38,527 nucleotides of DNA from a virus (Duplodnaviria; Heunggongvirae; Uroviricota; Caudoviricetes), in IMG/VR virus record IMGVR_UViG_2563366883_000008; one strand, given 5' to 3'. The translations under genes and the position numbers were made by a program. How positions within the stretch are numbered: the first letter of the stretch is position 1; each line of letters begins with the position of its first letter. Below the pieces are notes generated by a model. That model did no database searches. It had not been told where the DNA came from and worked only from the letters and a program-made list of their open reading frames with translations. Of this stretch, positions 1 through 38,250 are shown one piece after another.

Positions 1-738
1 TCATTCACTCTCTTTCAAACCAGTTTTAACTGTTTGTGGTTTTGGGTAAGGCTGGACTTTGAATAGCTTTGTGTTGAGGCGTTTTCTGGCCCTCTTGTTC
101 AGAAACCGGATGTAACGAAACTGTCGGAACTTATGCACACTGGCTCTGTCGATATTAGCCCTCAGATGTTCACCTCGTTGTCCGCCTCGTTTAATGGCAT
201 TCCTGCAAATCTCGTGATACCACTCGCCATCAAGTTCATAGAATATTGTTTCATGGCTGCCTACATAATCAAAATTGCTTGCCTGATACACGACACCAAG
301 ACAGCCACAACGCTCATCTGCAAACGACTGAACCCACTGTACCTGCGGATAAAGCTGCCTGATTAGCTTGAGCGCGTAACTGATTGCCCTTGATTCGGAG
401 TTTCTCGGCATACAGTCATGCAGCCATAGCCGGTTAAGCTCCATATATTCTCGGTTCTGCGTACCCGTTACGACGCGTGCACCACTGTTTGGGTTAAGGG
501 CGTAACCCCATTGCATTACGCCAACAAGTTCCCGTTCTGAAAATATGCCCAGATGAAGGTAGGAGTTATTTACGAAACGGTGGCTGTAATGTTTATTGAC
601 GATGACCAGTCTGGCCAGCCAGCAACTTATTGTCTCAACCCGCAACTCACGGGAGCCATAACCAACGATATTGTCGTTATAGCGAATAAGTTCAGGCGTG
701 CTGATGATACGGGATGTGACTTGCTTTCTGTTCCCCAC
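1..738 (-). CDS. mom: Mom-like DNA modification protein (245 aa); stop codon at 1-3 so the gene is complete
   Basis: Last gene after gin, start overlapped by an upstream Com-like zinc-finger ORF, as in the Mu com-mom operon. Call is positional plus approximate size; not verified by alignment. Confidence 0.55.
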
Positions 739-892
739 GACAGGATTTCCTTGTGTATGTGGGGTGCTCTGTGGCGCTCGGAGATGTGATTTGATTGAGG
801 GTTTTACAGCGCGGACATTTTACTTCCAGATAACTGAAACTGGCCCGTGCCAGTAGCTTATTGCAGTGTCGGCACCGTATGTTTCGATACAT
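692..892 (-). CDS. com: Com-like zinc-finger translational activator of mom (about 66 aa from the internal ATG)
   Basis: [10 protein letters not shown]...[10 protein letters not shown] CxxC...CxxC motif resembling Mu Com; AGGAGG upstream of ATG at 890-892; 3' end overlaps mom start. The ORF-track start at 937 is a TTG. Confidence 0.6.
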
Positions 893-934: not shown

Positions 935-1080
935 CAATCGATCGACAAAAACGATCGATTCGATTTGTTTAATTGATACAACAAATAGATTGAAAAGTCA
1001 TCAACAATGATTCAGGGCGGTGATTATTTACTTAAAGAAAACGAAGAGTTAGGTGGTGAAAACGATCATAAAATGATCAT
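935..1080 (-). promoter_or_regulatory. Putative com-mom control region with clustered GATC (Dam) sites
   Basis: GATC at 940-943, 953-956, 1064-1067 and 1075-1078; palindrome GATCATAAAATGATC at 1064-1078; AT-rich; upstream of com. Mu Pmom is controlled by Dam methylation of upstream GATC sites. Confidence 0.3.
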
Positions 1081-1149: not shown

Positions 1150-1191
1150 CTACATAAAAGGGAAACCCAGCATAGCTGGAACTATGCTGGG
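1150..1191 (-). terminator. Rho-independent terminator (minus-strand sense)
   Basis: 10-bp perfect stem cccagcatag/ctatgctggg (1166-1191), loop ctggaa, followed on the minus strand by a U-rich tract. Confidence 0.5.
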
Positions 1192-1378
1192 CCGATTTAG
1201 ACAAGTTTGCATCAATGCTTTACTTCGGGACTACATAAATGGCGACTCAGATAGCGCGAACTATTCTGGGTCAATCTGTAAAAAACTGCATCAATGCTTC
1301 ACTCTGAGCTCGTGGTGTATCCTATGATATTCCCCGGCCTCCTGTAAAGCAGAGATGCATCTGTTCAGGCAGGAGAAA

Positions 1379-1585
1379 ATGGATAAACTGACCACCGACC
1401 AAAAGTTACAGGCTGCGCGAATTGCAGCTGATATCACAATTGCAGCAATGACATCCACCAGTTGTGTCTTTACCTCTTTTCATACAGCTGGTGATTCATC
1501 AGCTATGCAATTATGGAACGCGTGCTTTTCTGATGTAATTCGGGCAATCAGCGAGTCAACTGACCCTCACGAACCGCAAAAATAG
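1379..1585 (+). CDS. Hypothetical small protein (68 aa from ATG at 1379)
   Basis: Strong AGGAGAAA RBS immediately upstream of ATG; AT-rich cargo region; convergent with and overlapping 1548-1748 by 38 bp. Coding status uncertain. Confidence 0.35.
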   Translation: MDKLTTDQKLQAARIAADITIAAMTSTSCVFTSFHTAGDSSAMQLWNACFSDVIRAISESTDPHEPQK

Positions 1586-1748
1586 CGCATCTTGGGGTAC
1601 ACAGGATCTGCATCGCTATCCACATTGCAGTGGTGAAGTTTCGATCCTGTAATGTATTTTCATCAAGTCCTGAACGTAGCGCATTGATAATTTCTGCGCT
1701 TAATATTTCCAGACCTTTGGTATCGGGCTGCTTTTTGTTCTTGTCCAT
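1548..1748 (-). CDS. Hypothetical small protein (66 aa)
   Basis: ATG at 1746-1748 preceded by GAGGAAA RBS; no recognisable family. Confidence 0.4.
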   Translation of the reverse strand: MDKNKKQPDTKGLEILSAEIINALRSGLDENTLQDRNFTTAMWIAMQILCTPRCAIFAVREGQLTR

Positions 1749-1789
1749 GATTATTTCCTCTGACTGGTATATACATCGCCCATGAAAAT

Positions 1790-1817
1790 CAAACCGACAG
1801 GAGAAGCTGTCGGTTTG
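1790..1817 (-). terminator. Rho-independent terminator after the 81-aa ORF
   Basis: 11-bp perfect stem caaaccgacag/ctgtcggtttg with loop gagaag, 5 nt after the stop at 1823; U-rich tail on the minus strand. Confidence 0.55.
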
Positions 1818-1822
1818 TATTG

Positions 1823-2068
1823 TTACATCATGGCACTGTCAGTTCCGGGCTGAACCGGCTCTGGTTGCTCTACGGGCTGAGGCTCATTCTCCGTGCTGTT
1901 TTCAGCCGGAGGATGGCCAACCATTCGGGCCAGCACTTCATCAACATATGCGTCGATTTGTGCCTCAAAATCCTTGCGAACCTGCGCCTTCAGCACGCGG
2001 TTCACTTCTTCAGAATAAAGTGCCTGTTTGACAAGCTCTTCAGTAACCGTGCCTTTAATCTCTGGCAT
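1823..2068 (-). CDS. Hypothetical protein (81 aa), acidic with Pro/Glu-rich C-terminus
   Basis: Strong RBS AGGAAAGGAGA before ATG; followed by an intrinsic terminator. Confidence 0.45.
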   Translation of the reverse strand: MPEIKGTVTEELVKQALYSEEVNRVLKAQVRKDFEAQIDAYVDEVLARMVGHPPAENSTENEPQPVEQPEPVQPGTDSAMM

Positions 2069-2103: not shown

Positions 2104-2289
2104 TTAAATCTGACCGGAGTCTTTCGGCTGCGGCATTACAGCACCGCTTTTTATCTTTTCCTCTGCGGCTGCATCAATTTTATTTCGAAAATAATTTCGG
2201 ATAATTTTGTAACCTCCGCTGAGGAGATAAAGCAGACACACACACGTGCAAAAATAAAGCATAAATGTATGTAGTATTGGCATAATCAC
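2104..2289 (-). CDS. Hypothetical small membrane protein (61 aa)
   Basis: N-terminal hydrophobic helix (ILHTFMLYFCTCVCLLYLL); GGTGAG RBS; directly downstream of the esterase gene. Confidence 0.4.
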   Translation of the reverse strand: MIMPILHTFMLYFCTCVCLLYLLSGGYKIIRNYFRNKIDAAAEEKIKSGAVMPQPKDSGQI

Positions 2290-2318: not shown

Positions 2319-4400
2319 TCATTTATTCACATTAGACGAAGAGACCGCATCGTTAACCTGCACTTTAATTGTGTCAAACAACATCGGGTAAGTGGCTGCA
2401 TTGCCGGTAATATCGGTCAGTGTCAGTTGATCCACCGTGAACCCGGCATTCACCCACTTCACAAGTTCAAATGGTTCACCATCTTTCCCGTCCAGAACTG
2501 GGGTAACACTCATGCTATTACCACCTGCAAACCGTAACGAGAGCGTATGCCATTCATGATCAAAGACACCATACGATCCTATCTGTTGACTTCCGCTCCC
2601 TTTGTGATACATCACATTCAGGTTAGCTGAATCCGTTTGCAGGAAACATGATGCGATGAGGTTATTTTTTCCGTCACCGTCAGGCCAGTTACTTACAGCC
2701 CAGTAAATACCAACACCATACCGGTTTTCCGCAATGCCCGCATCCGATGGAATTTTGAAACGGAGGGAAATATCACCACCTCTGGCGAACAAATCCCTGG
2801 CATTATCAGCTGTGATCGGATGATACATTTTCCATGAGGCCATGCTGTTAGGCGCTTTATTCACCCTTAACGCTTTGTTACCACCTGTTGCAGCAGCATC
2901 CGTGACAAAGGTTGCTTTTCCGGAAGCCGCATTCCACCCCTGATCTTTCATTGGTTCTGTCGGGGCGTTTGCAGTATACGAAACGATGATCTTCATCTGA
3001 TCGCTCACGTCCTTCACATCCCCGGTGGGTTCAGGCTCACTCTTACCGGTATCAGAATGTTCTGTTGCCGTTACACCGCGGAAGAAAGCAGATTTTTGTC
3101 CTGACAATGTCAGAATCGCTGTTGCCAGACGGTCTGAAATAATTCCACGGCGCGCCCATGAACTGAAATGGCTTGCCCTGTCGTTTGATGTCCAGTTAGT
3201 CGAATCGCGACTTATGGCACCATAATAGCCAATACCTGGAATATCCGGGTCTTCATCTGGATTATTTGTCGGTACATTTTTTCCATTTTCATCCACAACA
3301 AATGGAACAAAGTGAATGTTCTTTGCTTCATTAGCATATTTGCCATAAACAGCTTTGTATTGTTCTGGATATGTATTTTTCCAGTAATACGTCGTATCAC
3401 CACAGATCCACGGTACAGAAGCCATATCTCCGGCTGGAGATTGCGCAGAAAAAGCCGAAAGTTCACGCCTGAATGTTTCGACCATCGTCACAAACAGACC
3501 GGAATGTTCAGCATGTTTTCCTGTTTTCAGATCATTCTCGCCCTGCATCCAGACAACGGACAGGAGAATATTTCTGGGGTTACTGCTGAGAGCCGCTTTT
3601 GTTCGGTTAACAAGATCGCTGAACAAAGGTTTATTGACTCCCCAGCGCGATGATGCAGATGTTGCTCCGGAAGCTTCAGTAAATTCACCATCAGCACCAT
3701 CGGTAAATGCAGAGCCTCCTCTGGCACAGGGAACCAGAAGGATACCAGCCTCTTCCGGGATAAAGGGCAGGAGTTTTTTTGCAATATGCAAACCCTGGCC
3801 GACACAACCATACTGACCTTTTGAAAGATCTGCTTTTGGATGATTATGGTTACTCATATCCAGCACATCATGAAGACAGTGATCTGCCGGAATTATATCG
3901 TTGTAGGCGCATTCAACCCCGCCAGGTGTAACCGTGTTACGGCGAGCCAGCTGTTTAATACGTGGATCAGGTCGATCATAGGTATCAGGCAAAGGAAGAC
4001 CTTCACCAAATGACGATGCATTCGACTGACCAGCAATAACAACCACGTAATACCAGGACGGAGTTTGACCTGCAACTTTATCTCCTGCTGAAGAAGTGTA
4101 TGTTTCCGCATTGTTCCAGTCTGACGGTTCAGTAGTACCGGCAACATCAGCACTTAACGGAATGACAGCACCAATACCCGCTCCGGTAATTTCCACGTTC
4201 GGATCACCGGATACTGGCCTTACCCACAGGCAATCCCGTGTATTAAAACTGATGAGACAGTCAGCAAATGTCATACCTCCTTTCGTTTCAGCCGGAGGAA
4301 AGGGAGCCTCAAGAAATGCCGCTGTACCACCGGAAACTTTAACGGTAAAGTTTCCGGGCATTGATGATAGTTGAACCCATTTGGACGTCATAATATTCAT
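2319..4400 (-). CDS. SGNH/SASA-type carbohydrate esterase domain protein (sialate O-acetylesterase-like), 693 aa, with extra N- and C-terminal domains
   Basis: VVIAGQSNA block (GQSN nucleophile motif) in the central region; long C-terminal domain of unknown function; lies between gin and com where Mu has no gene. Family call from motif only. Confidence 0.6.
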   Translation of the reverse strand: MNIMTSKWVQLSSMPGNFTVKVSGGTAAFLEAPFPPAETKGGMTFADCLISFNTRDCLWVRPVSGDPNVEITGAGIGAVIPLSADVAGTTEPSDWNNAETYTSSAGDKVAGQTPSWYYVVVIAGQSNASSFGEGLPLPDTYDRPDPRIKQLARRNTVTPGGVECAYNDIIPADHCLHDVLDMSNHNHPKADLSKGQYGCVGQGLHIAKKLLPFIPEEAGILLVPCARGGSAFTDGADGEFTEASGATSASSRWGVNKPLFSDLVNRTKAALSSNPRNILLSVVWMQGENDLKTGKHAEHSGLFVTMVETFRRELSAFSAQSPAGDMASVPWICGDTTYYWKNTYPEQYKAVYGKYANEAKNIHFVPFVVDENGKNVPTNNPDEDPDIPGIGYYGAISRDSTNWTSNDRASHFSSWARRGIISDRLATAILTLSGQKSAFFRGVTATEHSDTGKSEPEPTGDVKDVSDQMKIIVSYTANAPTEPMKDQGWNAASGKATFVTDAAATGGNKALRVNKAPNSMASWKMYHPITADNARDLFARGGDISLRFKIPSDAGIAENRYGVGIYWAVSNWPDGDGKNNLIASCFLQTDSANLNVMYHKGSGSQQIGSYGVFDHEWHTLSLRFAGGNSMSVTPVLDGKDGEPFELVKWVNAGFTVDQLTLTDITGNAATYPMLFDTIKVQVNDAVSSSNVNK

Positions 4401-4490: not shown

Positions 4491-5051
4491 TTATTTTTCC
4501 GAAACGCTCGCAGGAAAATAACGATAAAGGGTTGAAAGGCCGATATCAAAAATAAGTGCCACCTGTCTTCGGCTGACACCCCCGGCCAGTAAACGCCCGA
4601 CCTGCTCGTATTGTTCCTGCGTGAGACGACGGGGTCTGCCGCCGGTTCGTCCCCTTTCACGGGCAGCTGCAAGACCAGCCCGTGTCCGTTCGACAATCAA
4701 TTCACGCTCCATTTCTGCCAGCGCACCCATTATGTGAAAAAAGAAGCGCCCCATGGGGGTTGACGTATCAATGCTGTCAGTAAGACTACGAAAATTTATC
4801 CCCTGTTGCTGTAATTCATCTGTCAGCGCAACAAGGTGGCGCATACTGCGCCCCAGCCTGTCCAGTTTCCAGACCATCAGCGTGTCACCGGGTTTTAGTT
4901 TCTTCAGTGCCCGCTTCAGTCCCGGCCGCTGTGTTGTTTTTCCGCTCATTTTATCTTCAAAAATCTGCTCACATCCTGCACATTCCAGCGCATTTCTTTG
5001 TAAACCTGTGTTCTGGTCATTTGTTGATACGCGTATATAGCCAATCAGCAT
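4491..5051 (-). CDS. gin: Gin/Hin/Cin-family serine DNA invertase (186 aa)
   Basis: N-terminal IGYIRVSTNDQN catalytic-serine motif, C-terminal HTH; adjacent to an inverted-repeat-bounded tail-fibre segment. Confidence 0.9.
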   Translation of the reverse strand: MLIGYIRVSTNDQNTGLQRNALECAGCEQIFEDKMSGKTTQRPGLKRALKKLKPGDTLMVWKLDRLGRSMRHLVALTDELQQQGINFRSLTDSIDTSTPMGRFFFHIMGALAEMERELIVERTRAGLAAARERGRTGGRPRRLTQEQYEQVGRLLAGGVSRRQVALIFDIGLSTLYRYFPASVSEK

Positions 5052-5105: not shown

Positions 5106-5131
5106 ATCCCTGAAACCTCGGTTTACGGGAA
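5106..5131. other. gix-like recombination site (left)
   Basis: Reverse complement reads TTCCCGTAAACC-GA-GGTTTCAGGGAT, close to Mu gixL TTCCTGTAAACC-GA-GGTTTTGGATAA as I remember it; central dinucleotide sits at the outer edge of the inverted repeat. Confidence 0.6.
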
Positions 5132-5266
5132 ACGGTAAATAAGGCGGCGAATGCCCTGCCATCGGACGGCACCGCTGCGGCAGCGAATAAACTCGCCACC
5201 CCAAGAAATATTAATGGTGTTCCTTTCGACGGGACGCAGGATATCAGCATTACTTCAGGGATGACG
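5119..5266. repeat. Inverted repeat, left copy (148 bp, identical to reverse complement of 6396-6543)
   Basis: Compared base by base in the sequence; identity ends exactly at the gix centre on the outside and after ATGACG on the inside. Confidence 0.9.
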
Positions 5267-5500
5267 CAGTCAACCGCAGATGACCGGTATGTACAGAACG
5301 TTCAGCTTGGAGCACAGAGCTATCATTCACCCGGAGGCAATGAAATGTCATGGAATTACAGTGCGCCTTCCGGTTGTATGCTTTCCGGTATTAACGTGCA
5401 GGAAACAGGAAAAAACTCTGCCGATAACATTGGCGGGGTTTATTTCCGTCCTGTGCAGATATATATCAGTAATGCATGGCGTACAGTTTCATCTGTCTGA
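5261..5500 (+). CDS. Alternative tail-fibre C-terminal segment (S'v-like), not joined to the fibre gene in this orientation
   Basis: MTQSTADDRYVQNVQLGAQ parallels MTESTANQRYVTGVRLGAQ of the fibre C-terminus; in frame with the inverted repeat so inversion would fuse it to the constant part. Confidence 0.6.
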   Translation: MTQSTADDRYVQNVQLGAQSYHSPGGNEMSWNYSAPSGCMLSGINVQETGKNSADNIGGVYFRPVQIYISNAWRTVSSV

Positions 5501-5505
5501 TGAAA

Positions 5506-5532
5506 GAAAAAGGGTGCGATAAGCACCCTTTA
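5506..5532. terminator. Bidirectional hairpin between convergent S'v and tail-fibre assembly genes
   Basis: aaagggtgc / gcacccttt stem with loop gataa, flanked by A-run and T-run. Confidence 0.5.
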
Positions 5533-5534
5533 AG

Positions 5535-6077
5535 TTATTCAGGCTGTTCGGGCCATTTAATGGCATCAAATTCAGCTTCAGTTTTAATGGCGGATGGTTC
5601 CATTTTTTTCACCTGACTGATGTATGCCATCCATCGGGTAAGTGCGGCTCTGTCTTCATCACTGATGGTGCCCAGCTGTAATTCTGTTCTCCAGTCATTA
5701 ATTTTTTCATATGCCTGATTAAGATATAACTGGCGCATTGCTTCCAGTTTTCTTGCGTAGTTAACCGGAATACGGGAGATCACGCCATTATCAAACTTCC
5801 AGTTACCCGAAATATCAGCACCTTCAGGGAGTTCGTCGACTTCAACCACAGAGAACCCCGCAGGATACAGCGCCGAAGCGTCCTGTGATATTGAGCAGAT
5901 AATGCCGCTGTCAGGTGTTATACAAAGTTTATATTTTTTGGTGAATAATGGCAGGGACTCGTAGAAATCCTTACCATCTTCACTCTGAAAATACTGTACA
6001 TCATTACCATAGAGGGTGTTTTCCGGGTAATATCGTTTAACATTAATCAGTTGCATAAACATCACCATGTGAATCAA
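5535..6077 (-). CDS. Tail-fibre assembly protein (Mu U-like), 180 aa
   Basis: Immediately downstream of the tail-fibre gene inside the invertible segment; size and position as for Mu U/Tfa. Positional call. Confidence 0.55.
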   Translation of the reverse strand: MIHMVMFMQLINVKRYYPENTLYGNDVQYFQSEDGKDFYESLPLFTKKYKLCITPDSGIICSISQDASALYPAGFSVVEVDELPEGADISGNWKFDNGVISRIPVNYARKLEAMRQLYLNQAYEKINDWRTELQLGTISDEDRAALTRWMAYISQVKKMEPSAIKTEAEFDAIKWPEQPE

Positions 6078-6176: not shown

Positions 6177-7073
6177 TTAAATACTTGCAGCGGATACCCA
6201 ATTCCCATTAATACAATATTGTATCTGTCTGTAATAAACACGGTCATCACCACTACGCATTTCCCAGTCTCCATCAGTCTTAAAACCGGTAATCACATTT
6301 CCTGATGACAGGGAGTAATTATATTCCAGTCCGCCGCTTAATGCCTGCGCTCCCAGTCTTACCCCTGTAACATAACGCTGATTGGCTGTTGATTCCGTCA
6401 TCCCTGAAGTAATGCTGATATCCTGCGTCCCGTCGAAAGGAACACCATTAATATTTCTTGGGGTGGCGAGTTTATTCGCTGCCGCAGCGGTGCCGTCCGA
6501 TGGCAGGGCATTCGCCGCCTTATTTACCGTTTCCCGTAAACCGACGTTATCGATAAAGGTTCCTTTGTCCGCGATATCCGCGCCATTCTGATCCTTGCGC
6601 AGATAACGGTTATCACCTTCGCTCTTGCTGTAAACATCCAGATTCTGGCGGGCCGTCGGTTTATCCGGTACATCGCCAAAATTCATGGATTTCTCCAGTG
6701 CTCCCACATCATTAGCAGCCAGGCTGTCTTTTCCTGATAATCCTCCAAGCCCAAGATGACGGCGGGCAGCAGCCTGTGCTTCTGCACCTGCATCCGCAAT
6801 CTCCTTAAGGTTGTTTTTCCGGCTGTATGCGTTTGCTGCAATGATTGCCTTAATGGCTATCACCAGCTGGTTCAGTTTTGCCTTATCCGGCTGAACCTGT
6901 CCTTCTGTCAGAATGGCAAGCAGCTCTGCCTGCACGATGTTCAGCCAGTCCTGACCTATATGGCTGATCCCTTTGCGTCCGTCACCTTCAGTAAACCATT
7001 TAACCTGCGTGCCCTGTGAGGGGGCCAGTGGTGGCATATCGGTCACACCTGAATTGTTGTCGACAAAATACAT
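6177..7073 (-). CDS. Tail-fibre protein (Mu S-like): constant part plus variable C-terminus inside the invertible segment
   Basis: Follows baseplate genes; its 3' part crosses the 148-bp inverted repeat (6396-6543) and the gix-like site. Confidence 0.8.
   Translation of the reverse strand: MYFVDNNSGVTDMPPLAPSQGTQVKWFTEGDGRKGISHIGQDWLNIVQAELLAILTEGQVQPDKAKLNQLVIAIKAIIAANAYSRKNNLKEIADAGAEAQAAARRHLGLGGLSGKDSLAANDVGALEKSMNFGDVPDKPTARQNLDVYSKSEGDNRYLRKDQNGADIADKGTFIDNVGLRETVNKAANALPSDGTAAAANKLATPRNINGVPFDGTQDISITSGMTESTANQRYVTGVRLGAQALSGGLEYNYSLSSGNVITGFKTDGDWEMRSGDDRVYYRQIQYCINGNWVSAASI
6396..6543. repeat. Inverted repeat, right copy (148 bp)
   Basis: Reverse complement identical to 5119-5266; lies inside the tail-fibre coding sequence. 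Confidence 0.9.
6531..6556. other. gix-like recombination site (right)
   Basis: TTCCCGTAAACC-GA-CGTTATCGATAA; inner half-site identical to the left site, outer half-site diverged. Confidence 0.6.
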
Positions 7074-7630
7074 TACTCCGTCTCCTCATGACTGTTTTCG
7101 TACAGATATAAAAACGTCTGCCAGGCTGGCTTATAACGGTTTAAAATGCACTCCAGCGCACTTGCATCATAAATTCGCAGTGGCGTAAGAATATCGTCCA
7201 GTACATTCATGTGACGGTATCCAACCGCTGTCTTCACTGTCACAATACTGATCCATTGTGATTCCGGTGATGGCTGGATATCTATTTCATAACCAAACTC
7301 TGCCGCAAACCGGATATAAAATTCACGGTTAAGAGAGGGTTTCATCCGGTATTTATTCCCGGCATAACGCTGACGCTCCTGAATGGTTGCGCCGGTCATA
7401 TCACATTCCGGTAACCCCAGATAACGCTCCCAGTCTTCCAGCAGCAGACGGGATGAATCAGGAAAACGTTCTGCCAGCATCTGGTTGCCGGTCCAGGAAA
7501 CACGCTCCGTGGAATGACTGAGGCCCAGGCACAAAGCCGCAAGAACGGATGACGGCCGCTTATCCCATACCAGCCCGTCAGGCAGCAACTGCAACAGGGC
7601 GCGCTGATGCGGGGTCAGGGTTACAGCCAT
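7073..7630 (-). CDS. Baseplate/tail protein (Mu gp48-like), 185 aa
   Basis: Position between baseplate J-like gene and tail fibre; 1-nt ATGA overlap with the fibre gene. Confidence 0.65.
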   Translation of the reverse strand: MAVTLTPHQRALLQLLPDGLVWDKRPSSVLAALCLGLSHSTERVSWTGNQMLAERFPDSSRLLLEDWERYLGLPECDMTGATIQERQRYAGNKYRMKPSLNREFYIRFAAEFGYEIDIQPSPESQWISIVTVKTAVGYRHMNVLDDILTPLRIYDASALECILNRYKPAWQTFLYLYENSHEETE

Positions 7631-22604: not shown

Positions 22605-24186
22605 CCAGCATCCCCTTCATTTCCGCAGCAAACATGGCATCACTGAGCAGCGTCATCAGGCGGGAATCATCCATTTCACGGTAAAGGGCGGGCAGGTCTG
22701 CCAGTGCCTCCGCCAGCCCCCGCGTTCTGATGGCATCAATGACCGGCTCCAGTACCGGGTCGATGGCCTCCTGTAACCGGCGGGCAGGCACCGCATCCCC
22801 CATGTCGTCCAGTTCATCACGGGGGCTGCTTTTCGCTTCCGGCAGTCTGGCAGCCAGCGCTGTCTGCTCTGTCTTCTCCTGTTTTTCCGGTGGCATCTCT
22901 TTGTCTGTCTGAGCAGGTTCATTGCCACTCTGACGGACACGGAAGATGGCTTCACCGGGCGTGGGCTGCGGAATACCGGTCTGCTCCCTTATCCAGGGAT
23001 CAGAAATATCCATCCCCGTACTGAGCTGCATCACCGCACTGGTGATTTTGGTGATATCCCCCGGCTCTTTTGTCTGGAAACAGATACGCGGCAGGCGACG
23101 GATATCAATGGCGTGGGCGGTGTTCAGGGCATACAGCGGATACACCAGATCGCGGTTCAGCGTGGCGGCCAGCTGGCGTAAATCAGAATCCCTGATTTCC
23201 CGGCGCACCTCGTTATGCACTTCACCCAGCGAGCGCGCGCCTTTGTCTCCGGCTTCCGTGGTCAGCGTGCCGCCGAGTATTGCTTTGGAGATGGAACGCT
23301 CCCCCCACGAAATCATGGTTTCAAACGGATCGGCCTGACCGTTCGCTGCCGCCTGAAACTCCAGCGACATCCCGGCCGGGATGATCCCGCCTGTACGTCG
23401 CCCGATATCCATCACCGCCCGCATCAGGGCACTTTTCTGCTCCGGTGTTGCCCCGGACGGGTATTTCCCGACCTTCATCGGCAGGCCGTACACCTCCAGA
23501 AATTCCGCCAGATCGCGCACGGAATAGTTTTTGAAAATGAACGGCCAGATAAGCGTTCTGACAAGCCCCGTCGCACCACCGTAGCCGGTGCGTGAACGCG
23601 ACTGATGCACTATCCAGCCAAAGGGCTGAAACGCCACCCCGGCATGGCTGCCGTCACGCAGTCGCAGTTCGCTCAAATCATCCGGGTTAAGGCAGAAATG
23701 CCCGCTGTCACGCCAGCGGATGGCGCGGATGATGTGCATTTTACCGAGCATCCCGTGCTCAATTTCCATGCAGGAATAGCCCTTCAGGATGGCATCCGTG
23801 GCGTCAAACAGCATGGCATCAAACCAGTCTGCGGAATGCAGATATTCGTCGAGCATTTCCGCGTCCTTTTTCTCATTCGCGCTGGCGTTCGGTGGCGGCT
23901 CAATGCTCCATGGCACCCCCTGAATGGCAAGACGTCGCTTGCCCAGCTCCGCAAAAAGGTGGGTGTCCTTTTCTTCAATGTCAGCCGCCAGATCGGACTG
24001 GGCAATCAGATCGCCACGTTCAGCCCCGCGAAGGCACTGCGCCGCCCGGTTCGGGGTGATACCCGAGGCGGGATGCTCAACATAACGGCTGGCAATCTGC
24101 GGAATATCCAGCGCGGTACTTTGCATCTCCGGGTCAAAGGAGAAAGGTTTTCCGTCAAGATCAATTATGCGTCCCACTACCAGCAC
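22588..24186 (-). CDS. Portal protein (Mu gp29/H-like), 532 aa
   Basis: Size and position directly after the large terminase gene. Confidence 0.8.
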   Translation of the reverse strand: MLVVGRIIDLDGKPFSFDPEMQSTALDIPQIASRYVEHPASGITPNRAAQCLRGAERGDLIAQSDLAADIEEKDTHLFAELGKRRLAIQGVPWSIEPPPNASANEKKDAEMLDEYLHSADWFDAMLFDATDAILKGYSCMEIEHGMLGKMHIIRAIRWRDSGHFCLNPDDLSELRLRDGSHAGVAFQPFGWIVHQSRSRTGYGGATGLVRTLIWPFIFKNYSVRDLAEFLEVYGLPMKVGKYPSGATPEQKSALMRAVMDIGRRTGGIIPAGMSLEFQAAANGQADPFETMISWGERSISKAILGGTLTTEAGDKGARSLGEVHNEVRREIRDSDLRQLAATLNRDLVYPLYALNTAHAIDIRRLPRICFQTKEPGDITKITSAVMQLSTGMDISDPWIREQTGIPQPTPGEAIFRVRQSGNEPAQTDKEMPPEKQEKTEQTALAARLPEAKSSPRDELDDMGDAVPARRLQEAIDPVLEPVIDAIRTRGLAEALADLPALYREMDDSRLMTLLSDAMFAAEMKGMLDGSGD

Positions 24187-25841
24187 CCCCGATCAAATTC
24201 ATGATATGCCTCATCGTCATCACGATAACCGCCCTCCATTGCCCGCGACCGCTCCGGCAGCGCCTGACAGGCTGATTCATCCAGGATGAAACCCTCCATG
24301 TATGACGCCCGGTTTGCCATACAGAGTGCCACGGCAAAATCACCATGGCGGCGGGCGTTCGCAGCCGTTGCGTTCTGGTCCTTCGTGCGCCCCTTGTCGA
24401 TTTGCGGGATACCATTCACCACCTTCACATGGCGCAAATCATCAAGCGTGGTCTGATGGCGGGCGACGAGGATATTCTGATCTTCAAACTCGGCTTTCAG
24501 TTTTGGCATCCACTCGCCGTACCACTTCGGCGACAACATCACGCAGTCGATGATGTCCGGGCCAAAGGCCAGCAGCGCGGCTTCTGCCAGATAGCCGCCG
24601 TTACCGGTGGCGTCAAACGCTGCACCAACCAGGGCCGGAACGCGGGTCAGGATGTACATCATCACCTGCTCCTGCTGGGCATACGGCAAGTTGCGCAGCT
24701 CCACGCGAAACACCTCACGTTTTGCCAGGGATTCGGTGATTTCCAGCAGCACAAAGCAGGAGAGGTCACCGGTGCGGGCAAAGTCTTCCCCGAAGCTGAA
24801 GCGGGAACGGGGATTTAACGCCTCTAAAAGCGGTTTTAAATGTTCTTCACACCAGGTTAAAACTTCCGATTCACGCAGCCATGCGGCACGGCTGATGAAG
24901 TCGTCCGGGGCTTCAAACGTCAGAATCGGGATGTCGCGGATCATCGCCATTTCAATAAGTGCGTGAGGAATATAGGCACCGCCGGATTTTTTCGGGATAC
25001 AGCCGTATTCCTCGTCGGCATCCTCACGGGTCGGGGCGTTTTTGTAGAGATCATCACGCCACTTCTGCTCGCTTTCCGGTGACCATTCGCGGCCGGTGAC
25101 ATAACAGATACGACGGTACAGCCCGTCCGCAATGGCATCATCCAGGGTTATGCGGTGGACGCTGTAATCCTTGCGTCCCTCGCGGGCTTCCTGAATGTAC
25201 TGATTAAACAGATTATCGACGCCGTTATGCGTGGAGATAATACGCACGCGCGCGCCCCACATGGTAAGCGCCATTGCCGCCTTGAGAAGCTCATCCAGTG
25301 ACTCGTGGAACGCGGCTTCATCAATCACCACATCTCCCTGAAGGCCGCGCAGGTTTGACGGACGGGAAGACAGTGCCTGAATTTTGAATCCACTGTTCGG
25401 AAAGCGGATCATGTAGGTCAGAATTTCTTCTTTTTTATCCCGATCCCAGAAGGTCTGCTCATACACATCAGCATCTGCCAGCTGGTTAAAGGCACGGGAG
25501 AACAGGGCGCAGGCAGAAATATATTCCAGCGCCATCTCCTGCTTTGACCCCACATAAAACACATTGCGGCCACCGCGCCGCTTCGGTTTTGCAGCGGTAA
25601 TGACGTTACGCCCGGCTTCCGCCCAGGTAAGCCCGGTACGGCGGGATTTTTCCGCGATGCAGACCTCGCTTTCATCCTCAAACCAGCGGGCCTGATAATC
25701 CAGAAATACCGGCATATCACCGGGCAAATCAAGGCTGTCCGGCACATCCACGCCCAGCAGGGCTTTTTCACCGGCCAGATCAATTTTGCGGGTAGAGACG
25801 GTATTCGTCAGTAAGGGGGAGAGTTCTTCGGCGTTATTCAT
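24177..25841 (-). CDS. Terminase large subunit (Mu gp28/E-like), 554 aa
   Basis: VVIDEAAF Walker-B-like ATPase motif; size; followed by portal. Confidence 0.85.
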   Translation of the reverse strand: MNNAEELSPLLTNTVSTRKIDLAGEKALLGVDVPDSLDLPGDMPVFLDYQARWFEDESEVCIAEKSRRTGLTWAEAGRNVITAAKPKRRGGRNVFYVGSKQEMALEYISACALFSRAFNQLADADVYEQTFWDRDKKEEILTYMIRFPNSGFKIQALSSRPSNLRGLQGDVVIDEAAFHESLDELLKAAMALTMWGARVRIISTHNGVDNLFNQYIQEAREGRKDYSVHRITLDDAIADGLYRRICYVTGREWSPESEQKWRDDLYKNAPTREDADEEYGCIPKKSGGAYIPHALIEMAMIRDIPILTFEAPDDFISRAAWLRESEVLTWCEEHLKPLLEALNPRSRFSFGEDFARTGDLSCFVLLEITESLAKREVFRVELRNLPYAQQEQVMMYILTRVPALVGAAFDATGNGGYLAEAALLAFGPDIIDCVMLSPKWYGEWMPKLKAEFEDQNILVARHQTTLDDLRHVKVVNGIPQIDKGRTKDQNATAANARRHGDFAVALCMANRASYMEGFILDESACQALPERSRAMEGGYRDDDEAYHEFDRGCW

Positions 25842-26422
25842 CAGACTTTACCCAACAGAATCCCCTTAATACGGGACTCAAGCTGTTCACTCATCCCGTC
25901 CACGCCGCGCAGTTCGTCGGTGAGCGCGTTCGCCATCTCTTCAGCAAATGCGGCCCGGATTTCTTTTTCACGCTTAATGCTGCGCTCGGCGGCACTTTCC
26001 GCACGCTGTGCCGACAGGAGGATGTCCTTGATGAGGCGCATATCCACGTCGCTGTCGCTGTTCAGGGATTCGGTGGCGGCACGCAGACGGCGGTACATCA
26101 GGGCACGGGACATCTCCAGAATCAGCGCCGTAGTTTCACCGGTCGGCTTATCCCCCAGTTCAGCCATCATGGCTTTTGTCTGCTCGCGCAAATCACGCAG
26201 ATTGCGGGCAATCAGCTCATTACGGGAGGCTTCCCGGCTGATGGCCGCCGGTGAAAGCTGCTGCTCTTCCGGCAGGCCTGCCTCGCGGATCAGACGGTTG
26301 ATTTCCTCGCGGATCTGGACCTGCGTCAGACGTTTTTCACGCAGCATTTCCAGCAGCGGCTTACGGATGCTGTCGGGGAGCAAATCCACCTTGCGCACGC
26401 GGCCACGCGTCGGCTTGTCCAT
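25841..26422 (-). CDS. Terminase small subunit-like protein (Mu gp27/D-like), 193 aa
   Basis: Charged, coiled-coil-rich protein immediately upstream of the large terminase. Confidence 0.55.
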   Translation of the reverse strand: MDKPTRGRVRKVDLLPDSIRKPLLEMLREKRLTQVQIREEINRLIREAGLPEEQQLSPAAISREASRNELIARNLRDLREQTKAMMAELGDKPTGETTALILEMSRALMYRRLRAATESLNSDSDVDMRLIKDILLSAQRAESAAERSIKREKEIRAAFAEEMANALTDELRGVDGMSEQLESRIKGILLGKV

Positions 26423-36159: not shown

Positions 36160-38250
36160 TCAGGCCAGCGGGTCATTTTCTTTTAATTTCGCTTCGAGCA
36201 ACTGCAATCCCCGCTGGAAATTACGCTCGTATTCTTCATCAGGCTCATCATCAACGGCAGGTTGCTGAACGGCCACCGTATTACCTACCGGGCGATAGAT
36301 GTTTTCCAGCCAGGGCTCTTGCGGCTTGTGCTCCAGCACGTTGACCACCTCATCCTCGGCATCACGGATTTTTTCCTCTGCACGTTTACGCATGCCTTTA
36401 AGGCGTTGCTGCTGTTTGTAGTATTCCGCGCTGACCGGGAAGGCTTCGCGTTTATTGCCGTCCCATACCGCCTCGCAAATCACGCTGCCATCCAGGCGAC
36501 GCACGGTAATTCGTTCGGCATCATGAATGTCATAGCTGATAAGCACCTTGCGGCCATGCTCGTCACGCAGCTCGGGCGCGTAGTAAATATTATTCAGCCA
36601 GCGTATTTCACAGCGTCTTACAGGGCGTTCCACCATCGGCCGGAACATATCCCGCAGCTCAACATCGGACAGCCATTCAATTTCAGTGTCCTCTTCCGCC
36701 AGGCGTTTTTTTCTGAACTCCGCCGGGCTGTAATGTTTCCCGTTCGGCTTCATGGGTAATTCATCGTGCGGCCGGTTGTTGTACCACTCAACACCGTCAC
36801 GAATGGCATCAATCAGTTCAGACCAGGACGGTAAATCACGCATCGCTGACTGCTGCCGGGCGTTCAGCCGTTTGCCCTGTTGCAGGGCAGTAAATGCCGA
36901 GCGTAAATCGCGGTTGGTTTTGCGTAACGTCTCGCGATCTGCACCTTTCCCGAAATAGGTGCGGTATTTACGGGCTATGCGCATCGGTAATGTGCGGTTA
37001 AGCCGTTCGATAATGCCTCGTCCCTGCGGATTACCGGCAATCCCGGTCGGGTGATTAATCCCCAGTCGCGGCAGTATCCCCACAACCTCCTTATCCAGGA
37101 TGTCGGCGGTTTCCCCGGAGCCGTTATCCGAGTAATACAGAAACGGTTTGCCGTGATGGCGAATGCCGTGCTGTATGGCTCCGGCTACGGCGAAAACATT
37201 TTCAGCCAGGTCAAGGCTCCAGCCCACCACAAAGCGCGTGCCACCGTCGATAACAAAGGTCACTTCCGGTGCAAATGGCCGACCGTGAACCGGGTGTGCG
37301 CATTTCAGCTTCATGCCGTGACCGTCACCAATCCAGACATAATTCACCGGCATTTTTGACCAGTCGCGGCGCGTGAATCCCTCAAGCTGGCGGTATTCAC
37401 TGCCGGTCACCCGGCCTTTTTGTTTCACCACTTCCGGCAGTTTCTTCATTGCGCGGCGAATGGTGTCATAAGACGGCATGATATCGAGCATATAAGGCTC
37501 ATCAGCGTGCCGGTGCTGCCATTCAGCGACAAAATCCTCGTAAGCCTCGGTCATTGGTCGACCGTTTGACTGGCGATACTGCGCCAGAAACTCGGGCAGC
37601 CAGTTAATATCTTCGGCTTTTATTTCCTGGCGCTTACCCGGTGCCAGCAAAAGCAGGCGTTCAGCGGCGTTCTGCGCCTTGTTAAAGGCTGCAATCCAGC
37701 GTTTCAGCGTGATTTCACTCAACGCGCGGCTGTTTCCCTTTTTGGCGTTCGCCGTCTCAACCATTGCCACAATGCGCTCGTCCAGTTGCGAACGTGCCAG
37801 GTTGTCAACGATAAACCGGATAGCCTTCGCGCAGCTGAAACCGGGTTGTTGCGCGACTTTCATCACTTCGCTGACGATCGCGATTCGTGCATCAGCCACC
37901 TGGCGCTGGTTTTCAGTCAGGGCATTAAGGCGTTCAACCATCAGTTGTGGTGATCCGCGATATGCCTCCACCGCATCAACCACGGCAGGCGAGCGTCTGG
38001 CCTTTGTCACCACCGGAGCCGGTGATTCATCGGCTTTTTGCGTCATCAGTTGAAGGGCATAACGTTCACGCAATACTTGTTGCGCGCCAGAAGGCAAACA
38101 ATCGATATTAAATTCGATTGCTTTTGTCCCCTTACGTTTGCGTAACATGGCTGCATTTCCCGCAGCTGCTTTTGTGAGTCGATGGCGAATGTTATGTTCC
38201 ATCATTGGTAAATCAGGAAGACCAACACATTCTTTTGCTGTTACCCACAT
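36160..38250 (-). CDS. A: DDE transposase A (MuA-like), 696 aa
   Basis: Size, position between ner and B, central DDE-type core (VWIGDGHGMKL region). Confidence 0.9.
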   Translation of the reverse strand: MWVTAKECVGLPDLPMMEHNIRHRLTKAAAGNAAMLRKRKGTKAIEFNIDCLPSGAQQVLRERYALQLMTQKADESPAPVVTKARRSPAVVDAVEAYRGSPQLMVERLNALTENQRQVADARIAIVSEVMKVAQQPGFSCAKAIRFIVDNLARSQLDERIVAMVETANAKKGNSRALSEITLKRWIAAFNKAQNAAERLLLLAPGKRQEIKAEDINWLPEFLAQYRQSNGRPMTEAYEDFVAEWQHRHADEPYMLDIMPSYDTIRRAMKKLPEVVKQKGRVTGSEYRQLEGFTRRDWSKMPVNYVWIGDGHGMKLKCAHPVHGRPFAPEVTFVIDGGTRFVVGWSLDLAENVFAVAGAIQHGIRHHGKPFLYYSDNGSGETADILDKEVVGILPRLGINHPTGIAGNPQGRGIIERLNRTLPMRIARKYRTYFGKGADRETLRKTNRDLRSAFTALQQGKRLNARQQSAMRDLPSWSELIDAIRDGVEWYNNRPHDELPMKPNGKHYSPAEFRKKRLAEEDTEIEWLSDVELRDMFRPMVERPVRRCEIRWLNNIYYAPELRDEHGRKVLISYDIHDAERITVRRLDGSVICEAVWDGNKREAFPVSAEYYKQQQRLKGMRKRAEEKIRDAEDEVVNVLEHKPQEPWLENIYRPVGNTVAVQQPAVDDEPDEEYERNFQRGLQLLEAKLKENDPLA

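Follow-up and report, generated by a model that had tools for sequence, protein, structure and literature searches.

Two convergent small genes between terminator-like hairpins in the gin–com gap of an Escherichia coli Mu-like prophage

The window analyzed here is the whole 38,527-nt DNA of the IMG/VR virus record IMGVR_UViG_2563366883_000008, and was identified as a complete Mu-like prophage of E. coli in reverse orientation. Its block at 1150-2068 carries a 68-codon plus-strand gene (gene B, 1379-1585) that converges on a 66-codon minus-strand gene (gene A, 1548-1748), and the pair stands between terminator-like hairpins at 1164-1193 and 1790-1817. Gene A encodes a soluble helical protein and is co-oriented with the surrounding genes; gene B encodes a soluble acidic protein and is the lone counter-oriented gene of the block. 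The stop of gin and the start of com are 95 bp apart in phage Mu, compared with ~3.5 kb of cargo in the window, all of it on the minus strand with gene B as the single exception. The block lies directly upstream of the GATC-rich region that precedes com-mom (Pfam, sequence), where the original prediction had placed it. The same prediction had called the block AT-rich, which holds relative to the window (46.5% against 53.3% guanine plus cytosine, GC) but not in absolute terms; GC was 37-50% across the cargo and 44% in the A/B module. Relatives are cited by the designations used in this analysis (L or P and a number).

Coding evidence for genes A and B

The minus-strand open reading frame (ORF) of gene A was recovered at 1548-1748 as first described, and is preceded by GAGGA at 1760-1756, 7 nt before its ATG. 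Gene B lies inside a longer ORF (1355-1585). The frame itself had been predicted correctly, but to credit it with a strong ribosome-binding site was an overstatement: the AGGAG (1371-1375) lies 3 nt from the ATG, compared with the usual 5-9. The two genes overlap at their 3' ends by 38 nt (1548-1585). Forty-six ORFs of at least 30 aa were counted in 4.5 kb and frames of 60-70 codons are common by chance, so A and B are lifted above chance by their conservation and not by their existence.

Substitutions were compared between two E. coli lineages about 7% apart. For gene A, the ratio of replacement to silent changes per available site (pN/pS) was 0.10 in frame and at least 0.43 in four other frames; the third-position-aligned antisense frame gave 0.17, but contains a stop. 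Eleven alleles of gene A held 15 silent and 8 replacement sites, with 14 at third positions (expected silent fraction 0.22; P = 1e-5). Outside the overlap, gene B gave a pN/pS of 0.26 in frame, and 7 of its 13 inter-lineage differences were silent against ~23% expected; across six alleles of gene B, 13 variable sites were silent and 13 were replacements (P = 0.002). Inside the overlap, all four substitutions between the lineages were silent for A and replacements for B.

Gene A was intact in 29 of 29 distinct contigs and gene B was disabled in 6 of them (Fisher P = 0.023). The lesions in gene B were a nonsense change (G1516A) in the closest relative, a start codon altered from ATG to ATA in L038, and, in four contigs, a ~472-bp deletion between GGTGATT microhomologies that also removes the 1164-1193 hairpin.

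AlphaFold2 models of A reached a predicted local distance difference test score (pLDDT) of 60 from the single sequence and 72.8 from a five-sequence alignment, and A is predicted to fold as a small bundle of three long helices and one short helix. Foldseek searches of PDB and BFVD with the latter model returned nothing at E ≤ 0.001. A likeness of the A C-terminus to an AlpA/excisionase-type helix-turn-helix was backed by no profile or fold search and is not claimed. The maximum 19-residue Kyte-Doolittle mean was 1.53 for A, 1.23 for B and 0.14-0.66 for their distant relatives, with no membrane segment in A or B. PDB profile searches with A and B gave noise only, the best match being a designed helical repeat protein in which no stretch passed alone. 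A word-indexed protein search with A and B returned near-identical E. coli matches only; a tblastn search of 50,697 phage records, with A, B and the distant forms of both as queries, gave nothing beyond this Mu-like element, and a first scan of species-representative genomes found nothing.

Against PHROGs, the best match of window A was phrog_28455 (E = 0.11). The A protein of L039 matched phrog_21398 (E = 8.1e-7), as did P0040 weakly (E = 0.019), and window A did not match that family. Window B matched phrog_25148 (E = 1.3e-4), as did the B proteins of L039 (6.3e-5) and L023 (0.051), over the N-terminal ~20 residues of the 61-position profile only.

The pair in distant Mu-like phages

An exhaustive HMMER search with A returned two distant relatives only (P0040 and P0041, at 43% and 36% identity), and pattern scans for A added L039, L049 (a Klebsiella chromosome), L050, L051, L052 and L061. 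The motif NF..AMW[IL]AMQ.LC.P is common to all of these distant relatives and to window A. The distant copies of A lie in Mu-like phages between a DUF1804 (Mu gp27-like) gene and the large terminase gene, two loci that adjoin in the window (24177-25841 and 25841-26422).

At L023, L039, L049 and L051, loci that represent three lineages, the next gene lies on the counter strand and converges on A, with overlaps of 26, 26, 26 and 29 nt, respectively. The products of these distant B genes start with K(P)LT[TI]DQRI[QE][VI]AR[IM], for which window B has MDKLTTDQKLQAARIAADI. Homology of B to the convergent partners was significant by BLASTP (E = 4e-7) and by hhalign (94%, E = 1.7e-7 over 19 columns). 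A second motif, W.F.D, lies outside the overlap; it is common to the distant members and can be made out by eye in the window as well. Judged from these alignments, distant Mu-like phages have the same A/B layout, convergent and overlapping, at another genomic position. The convergent overlapping ORFs of the original prediction are thus borne out as real genes, and substitution patterns together with distant homologues in the same arrangement show, at the level of sequence comparison, that A and B are both protein-coding.

A was found without B at L050, L052 and L061, and B was never found without A in the sequence searches of this analysis. B is also repeatedly disabled, and A is not. L051 and L050 are near-identical through the stop codon of A and diverge from 6 nt past it, and the B-less L052 is likewise collinear. 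This breakpoint implies that the last ~9 codons of B are the antisense of the 3' end of A, and that B is an optional addition placed exactly behind A.

A is oriented with the flanking operon in every context, namely with late packaging genes in the distant phages and with the cargo and com-mom here, and B is the lone counter-oriented gene in every context. Such an orientation is typical of prophage-expressed accessory genes. At L023 and L039, the sole minus-strand promoter-like site stands about 27 nt upstream of B, at a homologous position in both.

In L024 (GCA_006647045.1), the counter-oriented gene behind A encodes a zinc-ribbon and DUF4145 protein that matched PD-T7-4 (E = 6.2e-6). In its Mu-like prophage, this gene (6259-7116, minus strand) has the A-family gene on one side and the genes for the large terminase and portal on the other. 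Later work identified PD-T7-4 as RAZR, an abortive-infection RNase (PMC13017515). RAZR is reported to respond to phage portal rings, which makes the position of the L024 gene beside the packaging genes of its own prophage worth recording.

Hairpins, cargo and the com–mom region

The com-proximal hairpin (1164-1193, minus strand) has a 13-bp stem and a 4-nt loop, followed by UUUCCCUUUUAU, and lies about 50 nt upstream of the GATC cluster that precedes com-mom. Its fold (-21 kcal/mol, z = -5.3) was matched in stability by 0 of 200 shuffled sequences. The hairpin at 1790-1817, read on both strands by the consensus scan, has an 11-bp stem and lies 6 nt past the stop of the DUF826 gene on the minus strand and about 200 nt past the stop of B on the plus strand; it folds at -17.1 (minus) and -18.6 (plus) kcal/mol (z = -4.65 and -4.97, with 0 of 200 shuffles as stable). 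The consensus scan reported 10 terminator-like sites in the 4.5 kb compared with 3.9 ± 1.9 in shuffles. Both hairpins have the at least 5 T in 8 that the scan looks for, but their T-tracts are interrupted (UUUCCCUUUUAU, GAUUUUCAU and, on the plus strand, UAUUGUUACA).

Across relatives, 95% of cells at 1790-1817 were paired compared with 17-50% in slid controls, and two pairs had changed on both sides (A-U to C-G, and A-U via G-U to G-C). The shuffle control for this site was not decisive, 35 of 500 shuffles reaching the score with four distinct sequences only. Variants of the 1164-1193 hairpin were compared by separate folds. The 919-bp class of relatives (defined below) carries an entirely different perfect 12-bp hairpin at the com-proximal site (z = -4.9), and a third variant occurs in L022 (z = -4.0). 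Retention of the T-rich tail CC[C]TTT[T]ATG is confined to the minus strand, which orients the com-proximal hairpin as a minus-strand terminator facing cargo transcription. Both terminators originally placed at 1166-1191 and 1790-1817 were therefore present within a few bases, far more stable than shuffled sequence and kept in relatives. They are real, conserved terminator-like structures; termination of transcription itself is what we infer from them. The pairing and its replacements across relatives indicate that the hairpins are selected as structures.

The com-to-DUF826 interval falls into four length classes among relatives (1239, 1169, 923 and 919 bp). The window belongs to a class with an imperfect ~80-bp tandem duplication (about 1149-1228 and 1230-1307, by repeat search), in which 1149-1161 corresponds to 1230-1242, and 1172-1224 to 1251-1303 (75% identity), at a spacing of 79-81. 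The short direct repeat noted originally is the best-kept core of this duplication, the 13-mer tgcatcaatgctt at 1208-1220 and 1287-1299. The second unit contains a degenerate and weak copy of the hairpin (1244-1272, z = -1.4). The 79-bp segment 1187-1265 was found in the window's own class only and not in the 1169-, 923- and 919-bp classes. L027 (IMGVR_UViG_2703718800_000013) has NN exactly at the junction expected for the 79-bp duplication, which suggests that the tandem repeat collapses in some short-read assemblies and that the frequency of the duplicated class may be underestimated.

In the 923- and 919-bp classes, an unrelated sequence of about 190 bp stands in place of window positions ~1361-1790, which contain both convergent ORFs. 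The A/B module was present in 17 of 5426 complete E. coli genomes, and parts of a flank-containing query matched more than 200. The replacement sequence holds a plus-strand ORF of ~56 aa that is Cys4 zinc-ribbon-like (MDKEPVCPACKTPL...ICPACSPRRE) and comes with an AAGGAG ribosome-binding site of its own. This ORF is intact in the 919-bp class (L012, about 6235-6405, plus strand), frameshifted in L003 (about 5465-5585, plus strand), and gave weak PHROG matches only (E = 0.006). Gene callers merge this region, in another frame, into ORFs of 135-154 aa that start at the equivalent of window position 1007. A block of ~70 bp (about 1290-1360) is common to all four classes in the alignment although its flanks are swapped. 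It contains a minus-strand promoter-like sequence (TTTACA-18-TAGGAT, 1348 to 1319, from the scan) and, read by eye, a plus-strand TTCACT-19-TATGAT with an unfavourable 19-nt spacer.

In the window itself, the Prokaryotic Genome Annotation Pipeline (PGAP) annotates plus-strand 1007-1385, with the hairpin inside it, as a 'frameshifted, incomplete' hypothetical pseudogene. A conserved gene at plus-strand 1007-1327 was considered and rejected: the 'family' of 135, 153 and 154 aa switches frame between members, the residues encoded by the hairpin change wherever the hairpin changes, and the ORF is frameshifted in L003 and deleted in L018 and L019. The ORF at 1007-1327 and its 135-154-aa relatives are, from these comparisons, probably annotation artefacts across the mom control region and the terminator. 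The first ~52 codons of the ORF at 1007 are well conserved, possibly owing to underlying regulatory DNA.

Downstream of the block lie com (692-892, minus strand; Pfam Zn_ribbon_Com, E = 3.3e-12) and mom (1-738, minus strand; Pfam Mom, E = 1.4e-77). The region upstream of com is rich in GATC, read from the sequence at 940, 953, 1064, 1075 and 1110; between 940 and 1113 it includes an 11-bp tandem repeat (AAAACGATCAT, two copies at 1059-1080) and a near-palindrome around 1054-1099, and the GATC pair at 953 and 940 resembles the Dam/OxyR sites of Mu in spacing and flanks. L018 and L019 (NZ_AP043606.1 and NZ_CP011018.1; 1168-2374 in each) have a DNA cytosine methyltransferase gene in place of mom, still after a Com-family gene. 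Their ~472-bp deletion lies between GGTGATT microhomologies (window 1019-1025 and 1491-1497), and most of the upstream control region is gone along with the 1164-1193 hairpin.

On the other side of the pair, the 81-aa DUF826 gene (1823-2068, minus strand; PF05696, E = 1.2e-15; phrog_311, E = 7.5e-30; PGAP) scored 57.8 bits against a Pfam gathering cutoff of 25 and is the last gene of an esterase-DUF1378-DUF826 cargo block. Its product is acidic, as had been proposed (isoelectric point 4.36, net charge -9.4), and its pN/pS was 0.27 in frame compared with at least 1.3 in four other frames and 0.40 in the third-position-aligned antisense frame. The DUF1378 gene (2104-2289, minus strand) was recognized by Pfam, PHROGs and PGAP. 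The esterase-like gene (2319-4400, minus strand; SASA and DUF6645 by Pfam; phrog_143, E = 1.2e-260; PGAP) encodes a 693-aa NanS-p-like sialate O-acetylesterase family protein, here carried by a Mu-like prophage and not by a lambdoid Shiga toxin (Stx) phage; truncated, frameshifted and insertion-sequence-disrupted versions occur in relatives (L003, L022).

DUF826 and DUF1378 genes have been reported between nanS-p and a holin gene in Stx phages (PMC10462455). The likeness to the nanS-p region of these lambdoid phages is that the three families occur together, with DUF826 and DUF1378 adjoining the esterase gene; the difference is that here they lie in the gin–com gap of a Mu-like prophage and are followed by the A/B module in place of the holin gene. 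A recent import of DUF826 and DUF1378 from lambdoid phages was considered and rejected, as blastn matched other copies of this Mu-like element only; with no DNA-level match to lambdoid copies, the kinship is at the level of protein families only.

Beyond the cargo, a Gin-type invertase gene was assigned to 4491-5051 (PGAP 'recombinase family protein' and ORF call). An 87-bp inverted repeat (98.9% identical; 5114-5200 and about 6463-6549, the second placed by homology to L001 11564-11650) brackets a tail-fibre and tail-fibre-assembly segment beside the invertase gene, an arrangement consistent with an invertible region like the G segment. ORFs for tail, head and transposition come next, the last being a transposase-sized ORF of 696 aa (36160-38250). 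All recovered copies have the same prophage right end and differing chromosomal neighbour genes, as expected for a transposing phage.

Readings of the module and known systems

The reading towards which we lean on balance is that the gin–com gap holds accessory cargo whose com-proximal end, the block at 1150-2068, comprises the DUF826 gene with its hairpin, a swappable, antisense-coupled A/B module and a terminator that shields com-mom from read-through. Terminator-like hairpins lie only outside the A/B pair and none lies between its genes, so each mRNA should cross the other gene antisense: the B transcript would run antisense through A and end at 1790-1817, and the A transcript would run antisense through B and end at 1164-1193. 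Crossing antisense transcripts would make the expression of A and B mutually antagonistic. The original prediction had pointed to a distance of about 360 nt between the minus-strand stop and the hairpin, which is accurate (355 nt from the stop of the 66-codon gene at 1548 to 1193), and an A transcript running to 1164-1193 would explain it. The gap would then be the 3' untranslated run of the A transcript over B, lengthened here by the 79-bp duplication. Transcription of the cargo would stop altogether at the 1164-1193 hairpin, just short of the mom control region, and the toxic com-mom operon would in this way be shielded from read-through. With less assurance, B may be an independently transcribed and possibly costly accessory factor of the prophage, for instance an effector of exclusion or defence, with A expressed from the surrounding operon to regulate or neutralise it.

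Several observations weigh against this account. A scan of the window gave no recognizable sigma-70 promoter for A and none on the plus strand that passes for B, the best candidate for the latter having a 19-nt spacer. The Shine-Dalgarno sequence of B stands 3 nt from its ATG and has lost one base in the sister lineage (AGGA-AAAATG). Searches of A, B and their distant relatives against Pfam, NCBIfam and PADLOC found no family and no toxin, antitoxin or defence profile. The homology of B is significant only for its N-terminal ~19 residues, and its conserved C-terminal residues are partly forced, being the antisense of the 3' end of A. The overlap could be incidental, the frame of B simply entering A until its first stop, and A, being widespread on its own, need not be there for the sake of B. 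As for the shield, the U-tract of the 1164-1193 hairpin is broken by CCC, and Mu itself has no hairpin between gin and the Dam sites. The deletion derivatives L018 and L019 lack the hairpin and lie at two chromosomal sites (rhsD and yfcU flanks), so a phage without it evidently kept transposing.

The most substantial of the alternatives, possible though in our judgment unlikely, is that A and B are unrelated neighbouring accessory genes without coupling, whose overlap is a by-product of B lacking an earlier stop. This would accommodate the presence of A alone at L050, L052 and L061 and beside a different counter-oriented gene in L024, the L051/L050 breakpoint 6 nt past the A stop, which leaves the last ~9 codons of B as mere antisense of A, and the lack of a recognizable domain in either protein in Pfam, NCBIfam and PADLOC. 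It fits poorly with the persistence of the A-B junction, its relative reading phase unchanged, between lineages in which the A proteins share no more than 30-35% identity, with the joint move of A and B to a wholly different genomic site in E. coli, and with the failure to find B without A.

Rather more doubtful is the view that A alone is functional in this lineage and that B is the decaying remnant of a longer gene, its open frame being residual. B has 68 aa here compared with 80-88 aa in the distant phages, where only the N-terminus aligns significantly; its ribosome-binding site is poorly spaced and eroded, every substitution in the overlap favours A, and its lesions include the nonsense change in the closest relative, the lost start in L038 and the 5' deletions in four contigs. 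A remnant would not be expected to retain the excess of silent changes that B shows outside the overlap (7 of 13 against ~23% expected, pN/pS 0.26), nor an open frame in 23 of the 29 contigs, taken from lineages that differ by ~7%.

We consider it improbable that the stretch between the stop of the 66-codon gene and the 1164-1193 hairpin encodes a small RNA or short minus-strand ORF of its own, antisense to B, as had been suggested. The all-class block does contain the minus-strand promoter-like site at 1348 to 1319, about 130-150 nt upstream of the terminator, with its consensus match as sole support, and the 166-nt interval folds with z = -3.6. Promoter-like sites were not enriched, however (5 found and 8.5 expected from shuffles), and the 166-nt fold owes much of its energy to the terminator and to pairing of the duplicated copies, which exist in this lineage only; the whole 398-nt minus-strand stretch is not unusually structured (z = -1.7). 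A search of 850-2400 on both strands with the Rfam 15 covariance models gave no match at E ≤ 1, and a 1-nt deletion in the sister lineage shifts the frame of the one sizeable minus-strand ORF of the stretch (1291-1458, 55 aa). The proposal of a hidden small RNA or short ORF thus finds no support, and the gap is accounted for by the antisense of B (1379-1547), the all-class block (about 1290-1360) and the lineage-specific 79-bp duplication. That the small ORFs are chance frames and the hairpins chance inverted repeats is extremely improbable: ORFs of 60-70 codons are common in this sequence, but not a frame-specific silent excess with distant protein homologues in the same arrangement, nor hairpins with z-scores below -4.6 and compensatory or replacement variants.

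A fuller version of the antisense-coupled reading is offered tentatively and is itself unlikely. In it, A and B would make up a two-protein module of Mu-like transposable phages that has not been described before. B would be a lysogen-expressed effector of the exclusion or abortive-infection type, with its transcription directed against the late operon, and A a late protein that neutralises B at the protein level and whose transcript silences B, by transcriptional interference or by RNA duplex formation, so that the phage's own lytic cycle is spared. The slot behind A would serve as a docking site for counter-oriented defence genes, a suggestion that follows from the RAZR/PD-T7-4-like gene found there in L024.

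The module resembles toxin-antitoxin and effector-immunity pairs in that two small proteins are kept together, with B always lost first and A persisting; this asymmetry of loss is what toxin/antidote logic predicts. It differs from type II toxin-antitoxin systems, as A and B lie convergently on opposite strands and are not co-transcribed, and as neither has a toxin or antitoxin domain (Pfam, NCBIfam, PADLOC) or a PDB sequence or fold match. An antisense overlap of the A and B mRNAs would follow from the geometry; B differs from type I toxins in having no hydrophobic segment. A further difference from toxin-antitoxin pairs in general is that A is common in phages that never show B.

Phage 'morons' are autonomous accessory cassettes with their own terminator that lie between backbone genes of temperate phages. 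The A/B module is like them in its GC content, which is lower than that of the phage, in its presence/absence and swap polymorphism among near-identical prophages, in being flanked by terminator-like hairpins, and in having one counter-running gene with a promoter-like site in distant relatives. It differs in being a two-gene convergent unit with overlapping 3' ends and in having no clear promoter in the window.

A functional precedent comes from Fc02, a Mu-like transposable phage of Pseudomonas. Its small genes olg1 and gene 10 are reported to overlap on opposite strands, as A and B do, and both to confer superinfection exclusion, one being transcribed in the lysogen and the other with the lytic operon (PMC9936078). 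The genomic region differs: olg1 and gene 10 adjoin the repressor gene, and A and B lie in the gin–com gap or at the DUF1804-terminase junction. The Fc02 genes have no sequence similarity to A and B.

For the com-proximal hairpin the relevant comparison is the silencing of mom in Mu. Untimely expression of mom is toxic and is held under several layers of guard, namely Dam/OxyR, the C activator, Com, Fis and the divergent promoter momP2 (PMC3378877). The prophage in the window shares with Mu a com-mom operon and a GATC-rich upstream region, and the 1164-1193 hairpin is proposed as an extra layer against untimely mom expression. In Mu, gin abuts the control region and no hairpin lies between gin and the Dam sites, and two natural deletion derivatives of the prophage seen here have lost theirs.

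What is new at this locus is the A/B pair, which comprises two uncharacterised protein families; nothing about the terminators, the DUF826 gene or the cargo block is out of the ordinary. For annotation, the PGAP pseudogene at 1007-1385 and its 135-154-aa relatives serve as a caution, since they cross a terminator hairpin and the mom control region and are probably artefacts. The 1164-1193 hairpin suggests a means by which a toxic gene is kept silent in a phage once cargo has been gained upstream of it. Two small ORFs that were unannotated or 'hypothetical' become a defined module of uncharacterised families that recurs in three distant Mu-like lineages. Should B prove to be an effector of exclusion or defence, with A as its regulator or antidote, the pair would amount to a new and compact system (about 430 bp), and it would also point to a docking site for defence genes in transposable phages.

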